From: Octopus vulgaris
Taxonomy: Eukaryota
NCBI GenBank assembly: GCA_951406725.2
Contig: OX597825.1
Span: 49,166,001 to 49,230,000, forward strand
Length of the DNA stretch: 64,000 bases
Direction of reading: 5' to 3'
Shown: positions 1,548-64,000 of the stretch, one piece after another
How positions within the stretch are numbered: the stretch's first letter is position 1
Layout: each line of letters opens with the position of its first letter
Notes under the pieces: model-generated
What the model was told of the DNA's origin: nothing
What the model saw: only the letters and a program-made list of their open reading frames with translations
Database searches by the model: none
Program-made: the position numbers and the translations under genes

Positions 1548-2968
1548 CACAGTCATGGAACGGATAGTCAGATGGAAGATAATCGCATTCCTTGAAAAAA
1601 AATAAATTGCTAAGTGATACTCAAAATGGTTTTCGATCAGGTAGGAGCTGCCTGACCCGGCTCTTACAACATTATGACTGGGTGTTGAGGCAGTTACTCA
1701 ACAAATCAAATGTGGATGTAATATACCTTGATTTTGCAAAAGCTGTTGACAAGGTGGATCATGGTATGATATGCCACATACTGCGTGGCCTCGGCATAGC
1801 TGGAAAACTTGGAGTGTGGTTACATGACTTCCTGAATGATAGGAGTCACTCAGTAGTGGTTAATGGAGCCACCTCTATGAACACACAAATAGTGAACGGT
1901 GTTCCACAGGGCACTGTCTTGGGACCACTGCTTTTTATAGTGGCCCTCTCAGATATGTCCTCAAATGCCCGGATACCCACTCTGGTAAGCTATGCATATA
2001 ATACGAAAATCTCACAGAAAATACAGAACACCAGCGATGACACACCTGCAGCAGGAGTTGGACCCAATTTACAGATGGGCTGAGGATAATAATATGCAGT
2101 TTAATGCTGAGAAATTACAGGCCCTGTGCTACCAGCATCCAAAACTGAATATTAAACATACAGGGTACACCGGTCCACATGGAATTTCAATCCCAGAGCC
2201 TAAGTCAGTGAGGGACCTGGGTATCGATATGAGTAGTGATACCTCTTTCCAAGTGCACATTACCAGGATGGCGACAAAGTGCAGACGACTGGCTGGATGG
2301 ATCTTAAGAACATTCAGAACCAGAGATAAGGAAACCATGATGGTCCTCTGGCGGACATTCGTCCTCAGCCGCCTGGATTACTGCTCACAGCTATGGTCAC
2401 CCACCAGTATAAAATTAACAGCGGACCTTGAAGCAATCCAGAGAAGATTCACAAAGAAGATCATCTCTTTGCAACAGCTCAGCTACTGGGAAAGGCCGAA
2501 ACAGCTAAGACTCTACTCCCTGGAGAGAAGACGGGAGAGGTATGCAGTAATATATATCTGGAAGATCATGGAAGAAATTGTGCCAAATTTTGGCATTGAA
2601 AGCTACACCAATGCCAGAACGGGACGACACTGCATGGTATCAAAGATTCTAGCAATGCCATCACGCTTCAGGAGCAGTTACTGCAACAGCCTGGGTTTCA
2701 AGGGCCCACATCTTTTTAATATTCTCCCAAAGAGTCTGAGAAACTTGCACAAAGTAGATGTAGGGGCTTTTAAATCAAAGCTGGACCTCTTCCTGTCGAG
2801 AGTCCCAGATGAGCCTACCTCAAGGCAAGAGGTGCAAATGAGGGTAGCTATATCAAACTCCATTCTTCATCAAGTTCCACATATTAGAGGAGGCTCTTAG
2901 TAATAACAGTGTAGCGCAAAACGGCGGTGCATCAGCATGGCCGCAGATCTGAGCTGAAACTTTAAAAA
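1548..2968 (+). mobile_element. 5'-truncated CR1/L2-group LINE, RT and C-terminal part of ORF2, frameshifted
   Basis: Motifs QNGFRSGRSC, YLDFAKAVDKVDH, GVPQGTVLGPLLF, RDLG, SRLDYCSQLWSP, LYSLERRRER. Catalytic YADD reads YAYN and there is a frameshift near 2000-2040. Confidence 0.92.
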
Positions 2969-2998
2969 CATATATATATATTTATTTATTTATATATA

Positions 2999-8485: not shown

Positions 8486-9709
8486 CTATGTACAATGCAA
8501 TATTTTTTTCATGTCTTTTCTGAAAATTGGATTCATGAAAGCATATATAGCAGGGTTGGCAACATTATACATAAAATACATATAAAATACAATTTTGTTC
8601 TGTGGGAGAACTGCATGCGCCATTAACCAGCCTGGAAGAAATGCTATGACAAATACCAACGTCACAACAAAAAGTACGCCGGCAATTTTCAGGTTTGAAG
8701 ACTGAGTCCGTTCTTTAACTTTATCATGTTTTCGCTGAGTCCTCTTTGATGCACCATCTTTTCCATTTTTCACTGTATCTTTCTTTCCTGCTTTTGTTGC
8801 TTCCGTAGCATTATTTTCGCACGTTTCATCTAGTACAGTATCTTGTGTCACAGTAGTAGACGTGGGAGCTGTGTATTTGGTCTTGTTGCGCCAAGATCTT
8901 TTCAGTACAACAAATCTTACAATTAGAGCATAAAGTACAGCAATGATTAGAAAGGAAACCAAAAATAGAAATGAATAAAACTTTTGATAAGCTTTGCGTG
9001 TTGATTCATTTATGATGATAATATTAGGACCACATTCAGCAGAGTAATTGTAAGTATAACTTGGCACAGGAGATGATTTAAGTCTATTTTCGAATCCAAA
9101 TAGCAAAGTATCGTTGTAGGCTTCAGTTCGTATATCTAAGCTGCCAACGGTTGTATTATAATCACCTGGTATTTCATACTTCTTATACATACCATGCATA
9201 AGACTGGTGAAGACGCCAAGGCCGATTGCTGAGAGACCAAGTGTGGAAATAAGTATTTTCGCCCTTTTTACGGTCATCACTCCAAGAAAAGGATGGCAAA
9301 TACAAAAGTAACGATCGAATGCGATAGCTACCATAATAAACATTGAAAATGGCACATTCGATGTTATTAAGAAGAAATACATTTTGCAAAAGCCATCATA
9401 GACGACCTTGTATTCAAGAGATTCCACTATCACTGTAAACGGAATCACAACCATGCAGGTAAATAAGTCGACAATTGCTAAACTTATTATGAAGATGTTA
9501 GATGTTACTTTCTCTTTCTTATTGGAATAAATATAAACCACAATAGCATTTCCGATGCTTCCAAGAACGGAGAAAGTCAAAAGCTGGACGATTAGCACGT
9601 AAACTCGCCACTCGTATTCGCCAGATGAATTGCTAATTGTTGCGACATTCACGTCTGTCTCTTCTGTTCTATTAGCCATTCCTGGTAGATGAGTGACTGC
9701 ATTTTCCAT
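8486..9709 (-). CDS. Class A (rhodopsin-like) peptide GPCR, orphan, CCK/orexin-receptor-like; 407 aa in one coding exon
   Basis: Seven hydrophobic segments; GN in TM1, LAIVD in TM2, C before TM3, AFDRYFCICHP, NPAIY in TM7. Acceptor ttctttctctctcAG lies 1 nt upstream of ATG 9709; stop at 8486-8488. Confidence 0.95.
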   Translation of the reverse strand: MENAVTHLPGMANRTEETDVNVATISNSSGEYEWRVYVLIVQLLTFSVLGSIGNAIVVYIYSNKKEKVTSNIFIISLAIVDLFTCMVVIPFTVIVESLEYKVVYDGFCKMYFFLITSNVPFSMFIMVAIAFDRYFCICHPFLGVMTVKRAKILISTLGLSAIGLGVFTSLMHGMYKKYEIPGDYNTTVGSLDIRTEAYNDTLLFGFENRLKSSPVPSYTYNYSAECGPNIIIINESTRKAYQKFYSFLFLVSFLIIAVLYALIVRFVVLKRSWRNKTKYTAPTSTTVTQDTVLDETCENNATEATKAGKKDTVKNGKDGASKRTQRKHDKVKERTQSSNLKIAGVLFVVTLVFVIAFLPGWLMAHAVLPQNKIVFYMYFMYNVANPAIYAFMNPIFRKDMKKILHCT

Positions 9710-9710
9710 C

Positions 9711-9730
9711 CTGAGAGAGAAAGAAAACAA
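9711..9730 (-). other. Splice acceptor (polypyrimidine tract + AG) of the GPCR coding exon
   Basis: Minus strand reads ttgttttctttctctctcag|GATGGAAAAT. Confidence 0.85.
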
Positions 9731-10396
9731 AACTAATTAGAATAATTAACTCAAAAAAATCGCATAAAATAACAGAAAAAAAGAACAAATCAAAACAAAG
9801 GAAAACAATATAAAGTGAAAAATCAATTCCAGCTCGAATTGAAAATTAATAAAATACTTCTGACCACCACCATCATCATCACTACCCCCAGCACCGACAC
9901 CACCAACCATTCAAACCGTCCATCACTGCCACCGCCGCAACCACCAGCACTACTGCCTCGACTACTATTACTGAAGGCAGTGTAGGGCAGATTACCTTGT
10001 GCCAAAAACCCTGTGCCGAAAACCATGCTAATCAAGCTGAACTGATTTTCACTTTTATAATTCTAACGTAGATGAAATAAATACAATCAATGTATTGAAG
10101 CTACGTGACTTAGCTATACTTTCAAAATGAGAAATATTCTTTCATGTTAAATTTATTGCAAAATTTTCTTTTTTTTGGTGTTTGAATTTGCCTGACTCTT
10201 AATGTAATTTTACAATGCTTTGTATTTAGAGGAGGCCAAGGAGTTAACACGTAAAACTAAATGTAGTTTACAAATCGGAGATTATAATTTCTAGAGATAT
10301 TGAACGAAGCTGAACCCCGAGTGGATGAAAGGCAAAGTCTTCCCCGCTAAGTATTTCATCCGTCGTGCCATCTCACCGCCTTACTAATTAGAAATA

Positions 10397-27953: not shown

Positions 27954-28679
27954 TTGCCTGTCTGTGTTTGCCTTTCAAGTGCTGTGGTTTTACTGAGATC
28001 TCCCTTTTAGTAGAAAGAATAACTATAACTCTTTGACTGCTATTTCTAAATTCGGTGTGTGGTGAGGCAAATCGTTGCTAAACCCTTAATTACTTAGTAT
28101 TACTTAAACTTTCCTCGAATGAGGCTTTTACATGCCGAAATCTACTTGGTGAAATTAAAGATTATTCCAAATTAATTAATTTCACCCTATATTATTACTG
28201 ATAACCATATTTCATCCCAGTAAATGACCACAACATCTTGTCTTGGCTGCACGCTGGTGGGAGGGGGTTGGTGACACAAACTTTCATTCACACTTTGAAT
28301 TTGGTGATACTGGTAACGGCTTTAGCTCGCTCTGATACTGAGTTGAGATGATGTCTTCTAGTACCTCGAAATTTAATATACAATTATTCATAATTGTAGT
28401 GTCCTACGCTGATGAGAAAAGAAGTTGGGTAAGACATAATTATCTAATTCTTATGCTTTCCTAAGACTTAATTTCGAAACGTACGTCCGTAGGTGACTTA
28501 AAATTGTATGATAGATTGCCGTCATTTCTTTCTCTTTTGCCTGTCTGTGTTTGCCTTTCAAGTGCTGTTGTTTTACTGAGATCTCCCTTTTAGTAGAAAG
28601 AATAGCTATAACTCTTTGACTGCTATTTCTAAATTCGGTGTGTGGTGAGGCAAATCGTTGCTAAACCCTTAATTACTTA

Positions 28680-28683
<4 letters not shown>
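27954..28683 (+). mobile_element. Retrozyme-like / Penelope pLTR-like partial tandem (583-bp unit) containing a hammerhead
   Basis: 147-bp direct repeats at 27954-28100 and 28537-28683 (two mismatches), flanked by (TA)n on both sides. Confidence 0.8.
28403..28493 (+). ncRNA. Type I hammerhead ribozyme, intact core
   Basis: cctacg-CTGATGA-gaaa..(long stem II)..tttc-GAAA-cgtacg-TC-cgtagg; palindromic stem III; predicted cleavage after GUC at 28487. Confidence 0.88.
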
Positions 28684-30145: not shown

Positions 30146-30799
30146 TATCGGGTGCAGATTATATCGAGAACTAGCTGGGAGGCTCATTCTGTGGTAACGT
30201 TGATTTGTAAGGAACGGCTACTTTGATGAGGCGATAAATGTCATTTCAGTGTATAGTTACTACTAACATCTATAGAGATTTTCCCGCTAACTACTTTGCT
30301 CGCTGCAGGATAATGACTGAGTAACGCTTGTTTATGTCTATACATTGTTAGCTGGAGCAACTTATTGCTATTTCCAGTGGACGGGTGTTTACCACCAACA
30401 ATAGACAAAGATGACTCTGGACCGCACAGTCTGATGATCGCGTAATCTGCTGGAAGATGGTAGGGTTTCGTTCCTCTGTTTGCAATGTATTTAACTCAAG
30501 GAAGCTCCTCCTTGAGATAAAAATGAATCTAGTAGGAAGTTATATTAATTGAGGTGGAAAGTGGGAGGAAGAAGGAAGGTTGGTGTATAGTAGACATATG
30601 TACGTATGTAAGTATATATATGCATGTATGTATGTATGTATGTATGTATGTATGTATGTATGTATGTATGTATGTATGTATGTATGTATGTATGTATGTG
30701 TGTGTCTGTGTGTGTATTTCTTTGCAACGGAGAGCAGAAAACCTACCTACCCCGTCTCTACTTACTGCGTAGCAGACTCTAATTTACGTTAAGGATAAT

Positions 30800-31400
30800 A
30801 ATTACAGTCGCAACACATATATGGATTTCTTCGATAATACCATGGGTGTATCGGACTCATCCCAGGTTATTGACCTAGTTGACCTATTCCTTTTCTCCCA
30901 AATTAAACAATATTTCCTCAACCTCTCGGGTGGGATATGCAGGGATGATACACTCCTTTTAGCTGCTGGATTATCTCGACCGTCAGCGGAATGCACCAAG
31001 AAAGCCCTACACAAATGTCTTTAAAATTATAACTTGAATATTTCATTCGAAATTGACATTAAGCTGACCAATTTTTAGATGTTACTCTCGACATCAACAC
31101 AGATTTATATCAACCTTTCAATAAACACAACCAATCCTTACAATATAAAAATGCTTTCTGAAATCACTCAAAACTCATCCGTAATACAGTGGTCAGGGTC
31201 ACATCTACCAGAATCTCTAACTTATCTGCTAATGAAGACATTTTAACACTCACGCCCCTTATTATCATCAGGCCGTCCAAATAAGCGGCTTCCGCAAAAA
31301 TTCTATTCTATCCACAGTACAAAGCTTAACACTAGAAAAACCCACCTCTTTCCCTAATACTAACCCTGAATCTACGGACACTGCTTCCACTCTACACTAA
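30800..31400 (+). mobile_element. Penelope-like element RT fragment
   Basis: FDNTMGVSDSSQVIDLVDLFL, GGICRDD, FLDVTLDINT. Confidence 0.82.
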
Positions 31401-56939: not shown

Positions 56940-59120
56940 TTCATGCCTGATTACAAACCTTTCCTTTTCCACTTCCACCACCACCTAAAGAAAAACACAT
57001 TTCGAGACTTCCTTTCTGCTGCTATCAACCTTGTATTAACTTTTCCCTACTAATTTAAAAAAAAAACACGCTTCTTCAGCACGTTTCCTTTCTCAGTCGC
57101 TGCCTTCCTCACCGCCTCATCCCTAAAGTTTTCCGCCTCCATTTCCACCCTACTCTCCACTCTGCTTCAACAATCCTACCCATTTTCCGTACTACATCCT
57201 ACCGCCTTATGCGTGCCACCATTCGTACTAATCTCTCCAAAATACACACTATCGACCGCCTTCTCCCTCTTGCTTTTACCATCTTCTCCTCTCAGTTGCC
57301 CTCCCATACTAACATTACTTTACGTTACACAATTCATTTAAATCACCTCTTTCATCAATTTCTCGTTCACACCAAACAACGTAAACTCTACTCACTCCTC
57401 CATTCCATCACACCCAAAGCCACTACCCTAACTCCCCCTACCCCTCTCCCTCTCTGATACGCTCCTCCTACATCACCAAACCACTGACACTCCTAACCCC
57501 CACCCACATATCCCTCATTCTCTCCCTCCCAGCCTTCCACCACTCCACCACCCCTCCTACTTCTGTCCCATCCACGCCTTCTCCACTTGAGTCTATTGTT
57601 ACCATTCCTCCCCATCTTCACCTCTCTGAGGCGGAGCGCTCCCTCCTCATTAGGGGTCTACGTTTTATTCCGCTCAATCCATCCAATAACGAATTTCGGA
57701 CAAGTACCGAAATCCACGGCTTTATGCGCCGCGTTAGCTTGTGTGAGCTTTTCTGCGACACTCCACCTGCATCTAATGAGGAGGACTGCTTCACCGACCT
57801 GGGCCACCGACCATCCCAGTGGCCGCCAGCTCCTGGCCAGTTCCAAGCAGTCGATCTTTTTGCGGGCGTTTGCCAGCACGCTGTGTATCAGTTTGAATCT
57901 TTCAAGTGTCCTCGATATCTGAACATCTCCCCAGCCGAACTCTCGCCCTTCGATGTCTCCGACGCCGCACGGACATCATCATAAAATCGGCTGACAAGGG
58001 TGGAGCAGTGGCGGTGTGACGCCCGGACCTCTACAAAGCGTAAGCTCTCCGCCAACTTCAAGACACCTTATTTTACTGCCCTCTGCCCTCCATCCCCACA
58101 CCTAGCTACCAACAGACAATATCCTCCACTATCCATGAGGTCATCTCCTGCTCCCGTCTCTAACCTCATTGTCCACAAACCTAGCAATCCTGGCCGCCCC
58201 ATCGTCTCCGCCTGCAACTACCACACCGAACTCATCTCCGAATATCTTGACCGTGTCCTTGCCTCCCTAGTGTCTTCCATCCCCTCTCCCATCCATGACA
58301 CCAATTATGCTCTTCCTTTGCTCAACTCTTTCTCCTTCCCTCCTGGCCCCTCTAAACTTCTCTTCACTCTTGACATAAAGAGCCTATACACGGTGATCCC
58401 TCACCACGAGGGACTGCGTGCACTCCAATATTTCCTTGAACTTCGACTCAACCCCCAACCTGACACATCCACACTCCGTCTGACCGAACTTGTTCTCTCA
58501 CTTAACTGCTTCTCGTTCGCGGATGATTTTTACCAGCAGGCCTCGAGAGTGGCCATGGGAACGAGAAAGGATCTCAACTATGCGAGCTTGTTCGTTGGCT
58601 AGGTTGAGGCCCAAATATATTGAAGCTTCACTAGTCCCACCCCCGAACGATGCGGTCGTTATGTTGACGACTGTATTGGTGCGACCTCACTTACCTGCAA
58701 ACATCTAGACTCCTTCCTCTCTTTTGTCAAATCTTTCCATCCTGCCCTCCACTTTTCCTGCATTATTTCCGACATTTCAGTTGCCTTTCTCGACATTTTG
58801 GTCAGCATTCATCACACCACCCTCACCACTTCATCCACTGCAGACATACAGACTCACAATCATACCTCAACTTTTCCTCCTCCCACACTAAACACACCAA
58901 GCTCTCCATCCCCTATTCCCAATTCCTCCGTCTATGCAGGCTCTGCAATGACGTCCATGACTTTGAGACTAAGTCTCATTTCATGGCTCGCCACTTCATA
59001 CTACGTTGATTCTCCTCATCACTATCCACATCGCCCTCGCCTGAGCACTCTCCGTGAACCATGCATCTGCTCTCCTCTATGCACCCATCATCGACCCTAT
59101 CATATCACTCACTCCTGCAG
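56940..59120 (+). mobile_element. Penelope-like retroelement ORF (N-terminal region and RT), pseudogenised, no GIY-YIG end seen
   Basis: IIIKSADK, PGRPIVS, LFTLDIKSLYT, AMGT, RYVDD, AFLD, SIPYSQFLRL. Confidence 0.92.
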
Positions 59121-59487
59121 TTGAATTCCCTTTTGAAGTCAAAATACAACACAAGCATTTGAACGAATCTAAAGTTCATTCATTTCGAATCACTTCTTAG
59201 TGCTGTGAATACTTTGTGTGTGTGTGTGTATGTATATATATATATATTATAATATAAAAGGCTATTAATGTGTGTAAAAGTCAAACGCGTTGATGGGACT
59301 CTAAAAATCAAACTACTTTTAGATTCCCATTATAGCGTGTGGCATTTACACACAGTAAAAGCCCTTGATATAATGAAATCTATATATAAAGGAAAAAAGA
59401 GAAACATTGGATTAATTTGTTTCCTTAATTGGTTTACATGCTGGCTACTCGATAAAATCTTATATAGATTTTATCCTTATATGTATA

Positions 59488-61688: not shown

Positions 61689-62909
61689 ATATATATATAT
61701 ATATATCCATCTCTCTTTTAGTCAGCCAGTCTGTTTGTCTCTCTGTTTAGCAATCTATGGATATAGCTAGCTATCCATACATACATGTATGTATGTGTAT
61801 ATAATATATGAGTTGAAAATGAATACAACAAGATATTCGAAAACAAGGGAGATAACAGAGATGTGAAGATAAGATATTTATCATCGACTTTGTAATGAAT
61901 CTTGAAAATAGAATAAAAAATATTTAGTAAATATATAACAAGAATGTATATAACATTTTTGGAGTGGTATCAAGAAAATTCTCTGATTTACAGAGAAAAT
62001 TTACAGGCACAGAAATACATGTTGATGAATAAATGTGTAAGAGTGGTAATCGGTGATATGTTAGAAAGAATATAATTAAAGTTACCGAAGAGAACTATAA
62101 AGTTAAATGTATTTGTATGTGTGTGTGTGTGTGTGTGTGAAAGACAGATGGGAGAGAAAGAGGCATGTGCGTATGAGTGGGCGTATATGCACATATGTGT
62201 ACACACACATGTACTATATGTACGTGCACAAATAATTACATGTACGCACAAACACACATGCACGCACACACACTTACACCCCCCACACACACACACATTA
62301 AGACTTAGTTTTGCGCAGCCATGATTCTAAAAGTTTTGAATTTTGAGAGGAGTAGGACATTTTTGATACTAATATACATACACATATAGTAATGAAAAAA
62401 AGAAATAATCCATGGATGGAATTTATAAATATTTTAATGCATCGCTACACATGTTATGAAGGTCCTGCTTTACAAAAAAAAAAAAGAAAAAGAAAAAAGG
62501 ATAAAAATTCGACTGAAATTCCTAAACATAGTGCTTCAGTATGGTTGCAGACTGAAGCAAATAAAAGGTTGGAGGTAAAATGCAAAATTAAATACAGTAA
62601 ATTTGTGGTTTGCATTAAATATCTATTTCGATTTTCGTGTCTTTTTTTATGCTCAAAATATCTAGGGAGGGAGCGAATAACGTTATTGATATTATCGATT
62701 GTATATATATATATATATATATTATATAATTAGGGCTTAGTAAAATAAATTACTTTGCCACATACTGGACTTAGTAGAAATAGCAGCCAAAAAAAATTTT
62801 CTTAGCATTTCTACTACTTAAAGAAAATTTCTCTCAGATAATGTTTACTCCAGACAGCTCACGAAGGTTTGGGGGTAAATACAGAAAAATATCACAAGTA
62901 CATAGATCG

Positions 62910-62972
62910 TTTGAGTACGTCAACGTTTCAAGATTAGCCAAATAAAATCAGCATTTCTTTCGTCAGCTCAAA
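62910..62972 (-). ncRNA. Type I hammerhead ribozyme, intact core
   Basis: Minus: tttgag-CTGACGA-aaga..tctt-GAAA-cgttgacg-TA-ctcaaa. Confidence 0.87.
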
Positions 62973-63374
62973 ATTTCTTAATTTGGATTTGGAAACACTA
63001 AAAAGAAGGAACTTTACCTATCAGCGAACTTGTCGCTTCAGATGAACCACTCCAACTAACAGTGTCAACAAATTCAAAATGCGCAGGCGTAAAATTCTGC
63101 ACTCCCCATTCTACCCACGTGGTCTATCTAGCAAACATCATATTTTAACCGCGAGAACCGAGGCAGTATGACCGAGAGAAATGAATCATAATATCAACAA
63201 TTGAGGGTAAAATTAATTAATTATATATATATATGATTTTGATTTTTGATTTTTCCAGTTTCAGCTAATGAGCTGTGGCCATGCTGAGGCATATATATAT
63301 ATATATATATATATACAATCGATAATATATATTTGATTAGAGTGAAGTGAATCAAAAATCGTGAGGTAATTAGT

Positions 63375-63450
63375 GTCTTACAGCTGTTTCTGAGATATAT
63401 GAGGTGATGGGTCATTATCTCCATACACTGTGTATTCCGTCATCAGAGAC
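63375..63450 (-). ncRNA. Type I hammerhead, core intact but stem II closing pair broken
   Basis: Minus: gtct-CTGATGA-cggaata..tatctca-GAAA-cagctg-TA-agac. Confidence 0.7.
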
Positions 63451-63561
63451 GAGGTGTGTATGCAGGGAAGTTCAAGACGGGATTCATAGTATATAAAAGA
63501 ATAAAACAGTAAATAGAAGAATAAAGACAGGAGAATAAAGTTCAAAGTTCATCTTGTTCTT

Positions 63562-63627
<66 letters not shown>

Positions 63628-63632
63628 ATTTC

Positions 63633-63663
<31 letters not shown>

Positions 63664-63673
63664 ATCTCTCTCT

Positions 63674-63731
<58 letters not shown>

Positions 63732-64000
63732 ATGCGTAAATAATGGACATTACATATTTTTCTTTATTGTAGTAAATTTGATTTACAGCTGTTTCCACAG
63801 GACTTTATAAATCCGTTATTGACAAGTTGGCATAATCTGCCTGTTCATAGGTTGACAAAAAAAGATGAACGACCTATAAAAGGAATGCTATATTCGTCAG
63901 AGTCATTTCTGGTTATGACGAAAATAGCATTAATTTTCTAGGTCATTCAATGTTTCCACACTGATCAATTGAACGATTGATTAAGCCTGTCAATAATGAA

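Follow-up and report, generated by a model that had tools for sequence, protein, structure and literature searches.

We interpret element A (Table 1) as one copy, truncated at its 5' end, of an Octopus repeat that is present in many copies, has no ORF and carries a type I hammerhead motif, likely a retrozyme-like element mobilised in trans by a Penelope-like element (PLE) that targets (TA)n, and we give this reading a probability of about 0.7. The window, meaning the whole 64-kb stretch of DNA that was analysed, holds a second member of the family, sister element B, and judged on their sequences the two are collinear homologues, that is, diverged subfamilies of one hammerhead-bearing element. 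The kind of element is already known from other animals; what is new is the host, together with a candidate recognition hairpin at the 3' end.

Table 1. Features of elements A and B in the 64-kb window
Feature	Position	Strand	Description
Element A, non-coding 5'-truncated monomer	62727..63222	-	About 496 nt, GC 35%, longest stop-free stretch 53 aa
Type I hammerhead of element A	62910..62972	-	Predicted cut between 62916 and 62915; self-complementary stem III
Stem-loop SL1 (predicted)	62772..62816	-	3' strand is the first half of the originally predicted motif
Terminal hairpin SL2 (predicted)	62734..62759	-	3 bp, 2x2 purine internal loop, 5 bp; candidate RT-recognition element
(TA)n run, 3' junction of element A	62702..62726	.	
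Short (TA)n run, 5' junction of element A	63223..63234	.	
Sister element B, complete ORF-less unit	28099..28681	+	583 nt; fold z -3.42
Partial tandem copy of the 3' end of B	27954..28098	+	145 nt, 98.6% identical; head-to-tail junction
Type I hammerhead of B	28403..28493	+	Stem I 6 bp, stem II 4 bp plus extension, palindromic ACGTACGT stem III, GUC triplet
SL2 of B	28644..28667	+	Predicted
Predicted 10-bp helix across the head-to-tail junction	28051..28139 (28051-28060 with 28130-28139)	+	z -2.49 and -3.85; pair probabilities 0.73-1.0; one sequence

The predicted hammerheads

A strict hammerhead descriptor matched the window twice (62972-62910 on the minus strand and 28403-28493 on the plus strand) and matched nothing in 100 block-wise dinucleotide shuffles of it, which bears out the complete minus-strand hammerhead of the original prediction. 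In A, stem I is TTTGAG/CTCAAA (6 bp) and stem II is AAGA/TCTT (4 bp, extended past a 3x3 internal loop), the core sequences are CUGACGA and GAAA, stem III reads ACGT-TG-ACGT and the cleavage triplet is GUA, for which a GUU variant occurs in public contigs (at 62916). The one non-canonical point is pair 10.1-11.1, which is A-U in A and G-C in B. Both elements show the CUGANGA and GAAA core, the NUH triplet and the open helix I of a type I hammerhead, and both are predicted ribozymes on these grounds. Their stems had been described as entirely different, and this is correct for stems I and II, but stem III is ACGT-based and self-complementary in both. Stem III of A can form a 10-bp self-duplex that includes two G-U pairs (-10.8 kcal/mol, and -9.8 in B), and a dimer design based on a self-complementary stem III has been described for animal type I hammerheads (PMC4209133). 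As a monomer, the active fold of hammerhead A lies 0.4 kcal/mol above the lowest-energy fold, which misses the active core. Rfam gave nothing at gathering score over the whole window and missed both hammerheads, and no hammerhead was among its 32 weak matches in 62000-64000; in the public contigs, depth shows no step where hammerhead A is predicted to cut.

Kinship of the two elements

The likeness of the two element ends, as originally predicted, proved strong: in the 3' motif 44/58 aligned positions are identical (local z 9.7, reached by 0/1000 shuffles), and the global score was reached by none of 2073 real segments of the window. The claim that nothing but this terminal motif is shared, however, does not hold, because the 5' halves (250 nt upstream of the hammerhead) are homologous too, with 147/221 aligned positions identical, a local z of 9.3, and an alignment score reached by 0/1000 shuffles (global score, 0/1728 real window segments). 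Between these two blocks the sequence likeness is lower, with a local z of 1.7 for the hammerhead segment itself and no significant A-to-B sequence match in the 118 nt from hammerhead to motif (z -0.1; 526/1000 shuffles reach the score). The idea of diverged subfamilies that end at (TA)n therefore stands, but what they keep goes beyond a ribozyme core and a 3' signal, since the 5' half and the predicted fold are also shared, and with these in common, descent from one ancestor is the first explanation for the shared end. Element A is also longer than first drawn, reaching 63222 instead of stopping at 63160, and its start is homologous to a point inside the B unit.

In B, positions 27954-28097 repeat 28537-28680 at 98.6% by masked BLAST. 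The complete unit of B, 583 nt long and ORF-less, thus follows directly on a partial copy of its own 3' end, from which we conclude that the unit is non-autonomous. The arrangement is a PLE-type partial tandem (pseudo-LTR), and the unit contains no ORF for the reverse transcriptase (RT) plus GIY-YIG of an autonomous PLE; the longest stop-free stretches are 53 aa in A and 69 aa in B, at a GC content of 35-36%. As present in the window, A is a monomer and B amounts to 1.25 units with one ribozyme, and there is no copy with two hammerheads. For A, no tandem joint appears among the contig joints listed, and A lacks the junction segment.

Two candidate sequences were rejected. The adjacent RT relic at 27731-27010 was considered as the parent of B, but it lies on the opposite strand, is separated by microsatellites and shares no sequence with B. 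The segment 63291-63235, considered as the missing 5' part of A, has no match to the first 70 nt of B (185/1000 shuffles score as high) and matches instead the LINE end at 2928-2975 (0/1000 shuffles). A 50-nt fragment found at 63291-63242 (minus), 2928-2975 (plus) and 46065-46024 (minus) matches the LINE relic at 1583-2900 in its 3' end, and it too has TA-rich runs beside it.

A different way to explain A is as what remained of an autonomous PLE after 5' truncation, a solo pseudo-LTR (3' UTR), the motif being the 3' end of that element. Hammerheads are normal in PLE pseudo-LTRs (pLTRs), most of which are found as single truncated copies, PLE RT relics are present in the window, contig depth is biased to the 3' end (see below), and the contig comparison leaves out 63207-63325 and with it the 5' junctions of other copies of A, all of which would suit this explanation. 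We nonetheless consider it quite improbable, as the head-to-tail junction of B is followed by 583 nt that contain no ORF and close in the same 3' end, A begins at a point homologous to the interior of the B unit, the helix sizes are canonical (6/4) and not those of the minimal PLE type (4-5/7-8), and the element is absent from the consensus ends published for Octopus Naiad and Hydra.

Predicted RNA fold and the 3' end

In both elements, the 5' half is predicted to pair with the stretch following the hammerhead, giving a rod with the ribozyme near its tip. This fold has a z of -3.39 in A (0/100 shuffles) and -3.42 in B, and it favors the sense (hammerhead) strand, for which z is -3.1 and -3.9, as opposed to -2.1 and -0.8 for the antisense strand; only one of 22 control windows folds more strongly. 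Majority contig variants at 62903, 63020, 63023 and 63173 would break pairs of the rod predicted for A, so its details are uncertain. One control window, 16201-16700, has an unusually strong fold (z -5.2, 10 shuffles) and lies inside retroelement-like relics.

The originally predicted motif corresponds to the 3' strand of SL1, a linker and the terminal hairpin SL2. SL1 folds strongly in A, with a z of -3.18, and only weakly in B, where z is -0.2. At its pair G62814-C62774 the contigs carry U and A variants at 59%/61% (run X1), 58%/57% (X3) and 56%/42% (X5), which are compatible with compensation, though unphased; a G variant at 62774 (35%, 11% and 17%) has no partner change among the variants listed. 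In SL2, all 8 pairs are kept between A and B, with two compensatory changes and one one-sided change, and slid registers are only 25-50% paired. The covariation score of SL2 was reached by 58/500 shuffles because only two lineages are compared, and the two compensatory changes among its 8 pairs are accordingly suggestive only. Even so, since the 3' end is predicted to fold into a hairpin with compensatory changes, it is a reasonable candidate for the proposed role in RT recognition.

Across the head-to-tail junction of B, the linker is predicted to pair with the start of the next unit in a helix that stacks on SL2, leaving an AT-rich single strand enclosed. It is in this AT-rich strand that the 3' ends of both genomic copies fall, with B ending about 8 nt beyond A. 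A partner strand for this closing helix was also sought inside A and rejected at a pair probability of 0, A being without that segment.

Insertion at (TA)n and specificity of the motif

Both genomic 3' ends in the window (2/2, A and B) adjoin (TA)n, as had been predicted, against a background in which about 3% of the window positions outside (TA)n runs fall at most 12 nt upstream of one. A (TA)n preference has been published for Octopus Naiad and Hydra elements (PMC8557442). The motif itself occurs three times in the window, always in A or B, two of the occurrences adjoining (TA)n and the third adjoining the next unit. A motif profile, the check originally proposed, here carried out within the window, gave these three matches at E < 1e-19 and a next best at E 0.71, so that no copy stands apart from the hammerhead elements A and B, and nothing convincing was found elsewhere in the window, including the LINE end. 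Motif scans of metagenome, viral and prokaryote collections gave 0 matches, as expected for an animal repeat.

These results bear on the possibility that A and B are SINE-like elements whose 3' stem-loop is recognised by a mobilising LINE, while their 5' end is processed by the hammerhead. It is established that SINEs and LINEs can share a 3' stem-loop, SINEs are the major repeat class in Octopus, and the LINE relic in the window (ORFs 1583-2900) likewise ends at a TA-rich run. We find this very unlikely, however, given that neither A nor B has a tRNA or a box B, the head of a tRNA-derived SINE being absent, that the hammerhead sits mid-element, 190 nt from the 3' end, that the partial tandem is PLE-like, and that the motif has no convincing match at the LINE end or elsewhere in the window.

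As a general signal for TA targeting, on the other hand, the motif fails: two other hammerheads, C (63450-63375) and D (28825-28765), also reach (TA)n but lack it, their ends scoring no better against the motif than 828 and 697 of 1000 shuffles, respectively, so the motif marks the A/B family only. It may then be asked whether it is a recognition signal at all, or whether it was kept by RNA fold or by descent while (TA)n targeting comes from the endonuclease of the partner alone. Such an explanation is compatible with the identity of the family given above, and we view it as possible, if on the unlikely side. Homology is no less significant in the 5' half than in the motif (z 9.3 and 9.7), hammerheads C and D reach (TA)n without the motif, and Craig et al. 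(PMC8557442) ascribed the (TA)n bias to protein zinc-finger linkers. Yet identity is higher in the motif (44/58) than in the 5' half (147/221), the geometry of SL2 and its distance from the end are kept, and contigs from X3 and X14 join the motif to upstream sequence unlike A at 62793-62794, suggesting that the motif outlasts the element body.

Hammerhead C (minus strand), of another family, is decayed and lies in an element that spans at least 63316-63560 and is likely a PLE pseudo-LTR; the hammerhead has a palindromic ACAGCTGT stem III and a broken stem II, in which majority contig variants fall at 63393-63401 and 63431, at a depth of up to about 13,000. Hammerhead D (minus strand), recognised by eye, is degenerate, with a CUGAAGA core, a long stem II and a local fold z of -3.9; it resembles the Hydra-type motifs in Craig et al. 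and is arranged tail to tail with B, a (TA)n run lying between the two. Several unrelated retroelements in the window have ends that cluster at TA-rich microsatellites. Broken PLE RT relics at 27731-27010 (minus) and 30773-31024 (plus) look by eye like Hydra-1_Obim and have no Pfam match, and another broken RT relic at 57385-59124 (plus), of a different and probably Penelope-like lineage, has a weak RVT_1 match (E 0.043), which was the only one obtained when six relic peptides were compared with Pfam. The window also contains an intact single-exon GPCR ORF (8486-9736, minus), which falls in a 90% identity cluster with named Octopus proteins, members of which are called cholecystokinin receptor type A or orexin receptor type 2-like in Octopus, and which points to an Octopus as the host.

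Abundance in public contigs

Public contigs from four runs of four organisms, out of 24 runs listed, aligned to 62650-63540 in numbers of 1434, 802, 1042 and 15, with identities spread over 80-99%; the comparison left out the zones 62650-62732 and 63207-63325, and the variants discussed here are among the 40 listed of 118. In the first three runs, summed depth was 0.6-1.1 million at 62740-62769, against 3,400-52,000 at 63100-63219, and it was highest over the last 60 nt of A. Contig depth, which is not to be equated with copy number, shows a multi-copy family with a 3' bias, and the loose contig ends at 62793-62794 (X3 and X14), where the motif is joined to upstream sequence unlike that of A, point to further subfamilies. 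Over 62733-63206, X14 gave only 15 contigs, yet two of these are close to A itself (2/240 and 3/255 differences), at a depth of about 10, in contrast to the three runs that gave about 1000 contigs each. One X1 contig joins the element to itself on opposite strands (joint 62797-62977), and inverted copies have been described for PLEs.

Known systems and the possible partner

Repeats with type I hammerheads have been described as non-LTR retrozymes, with PLEs as their likely mobilisers (PMC7229834; bioRxiv 10.64898/2026.07.22.740005), and the elements found here share with these animal retrozymes the hammerhead type, the lack of an ORF, a low GC content and a highly self-paired RNA (PMC7229834; bioRxiv 10.64898/2026.07.22.740005), besides the head-to-tail arrangement, the solo monomers and the co-existence with PLEs. 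Helix I is 6 bp long, helix II 4 bp, helix III is short and palindromic, GC lies below 45-50%, and the unit measures a few hundred nucleotides. At 583 nt it exceeds the 170-400 nt of Cervera and de la Pena (PMC7229834) and lies within the 51-972 of the later description (bioRxiv 10.64898/2026.07.22.740005). The Octopus elements differ, however, in that there are only a monomer and a 1.25-mer here, in their insertion in (TA)n and in the extended stem II. Because no copy has two hammerheads, A and B also fall outside the "active retrozyme" definition of Li et al. (bioRxiv 10.64898/2026.07.22.740005). In the portions of the retrozyme descriptions available to us (PMC7229834; bioRxiv 10.64898/2026.07.22.740005) no conserved 3' recognition hairpin and no cephalopod example were found, and literature searches of open-access papers listed none that describes such an element from cephalopods, except for the hammerhead of Hydra-1_Obim (Craig et al.). 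The A/B family may already be catalogued as an unclassified repeat.

PLE pLTRs with minimal hammerheads (PMC4209133), along with Hydra-1_Obim and Naiad_Obim/Ovul (PMC8557442), have in common with A and B a short palindromic stem III, partial tandems, 5' truncation and a preference for (TA)n, whereas the unit described here has no RT/GIY-YIG ORF and its helix sizes are canonical, not minimal. The end of Hydra-1_Obim has no likeness to the motif by eye, and those of Naiad_Obim and Naiad_Ovul, which are without a canonical hammerhead, share only short words with A (PMC8557442). A further parallel is found in non-autonomous Chlamys elements, MRC1 among them, which depend on PLEs, lack an ORF, carry pLTRs and occur as head-to-tail copies with 3' ends like those of their partners (PMC8557442); these are algal, however, and their clade is generally without canonical hammerheads (PMC8557442). 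PAc, the Poseidon element of Anolis (PMC11167929), sets a precedent: its RT begins within the RNA, at a stem-loop beyond the unit junction, nicking is AT-rich and the tails are variable. It is autonomous, however, and its site is in the ORF start and AC-rich.

An autonomous element bearing this 3' end was found neither in the 64-kb window nor among the published Octopus Naiad and Hydra consensus ends. The words that A shares with the Naiad_Obim and Naiad_Ovul ends are TGGCTG and GTATGT or GTATAT, which by eye stand about as far from the end as they do in A, and both Naiad ends can form a small terminal hairpin (predicted, by eye). A hand-estimated alignment score of about 18-20 between A and the Naiad end nevertheless does not leave the range of shuffled segments of this size (14.7 +/- 2.8), which makes Naiad a weak lead as partner; a result of 0/100 shuffles for the pattern of likeness is inflated, as the pattern was built after both ends had been seen. 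The shared words were not seen by eye in the Naiad_Omin, Mmer, Esco, Adux and Skow ends as published, no Naiad end was found in the window, and a word search of the available supplement of Craig et al. (PMC8557442), where 70-letter line breaks can hide words, gave no copy of the motif.

It is conceivable, although we regard it as doubtful, that A and B are hammerhead circular-RNA parasites of a hammerhead-less Naiad whose 3' end they copy as a hairpin, with the full RT-recognition domain (SL2 and the closing helix around an AT-rich template loop) forming only across the head-to-tail junction. If so, only self-cleaved circles or multimers would be retrotransposed, because the domain would form in these alone, and monomeric genomic copies like A would be dead on arrival.

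Proposed mechanism and implications

For a retrozyme-like element mobilised in trans by a PLE, as we favor, the life cycle can be pictured as follows. Transcription reading through tandem copies would give RNAs that hammerheads, paired as a stem III dimer, would cut to unit length and that may then be circularised, a step that we infer from published retrozymes (PMC7229834). The RNA would adopt a rod with the ribozyme near the tip and two hairpins at the 3' end, following the predicted fold and its limited covariation, and where the RNA is a multimer or a circle, SL2 would also be closed by a helix that spans the unit junction. The PLE reverse transcriptase/GIY-YIG endonuclease might then bind the 3' domain and nick (TA)n, with copying beginning in the AT-rich strand that immediately follows SL2 on its 3' side. 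Copying halted before one round would yield A, and copying carried beyond one round would yield B, at 1.25 units. Partial tandems, tails and a (TA)n bias are all described for PLEs (PMC8557442), and internal RT initiation in a stem-loop and AT-rich nicking have been reported as well (PMC11167929). As for the role of the ribozyme, hammerhead cleavage was dispensable for PAc insertion in vitro (PMC11167929), and 8/9 predicted Xenopus retrozymes did not cleave (bioRxiv 10.64898/2026.07.22.740005).

How animal retrozymes are recognised and mobilised is the wider question to which these findings belong: PLEs are the proposed partners, and the retrozyme literature, as far as the descriptions consulted here extend, defines no cis signal. 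With its many copies, its diverged subfamilies, its sharp 3' end and the conserved terminal hairpin, the Octopus family would make the question of recognition testable by means of covariation and in vitro TPRT.
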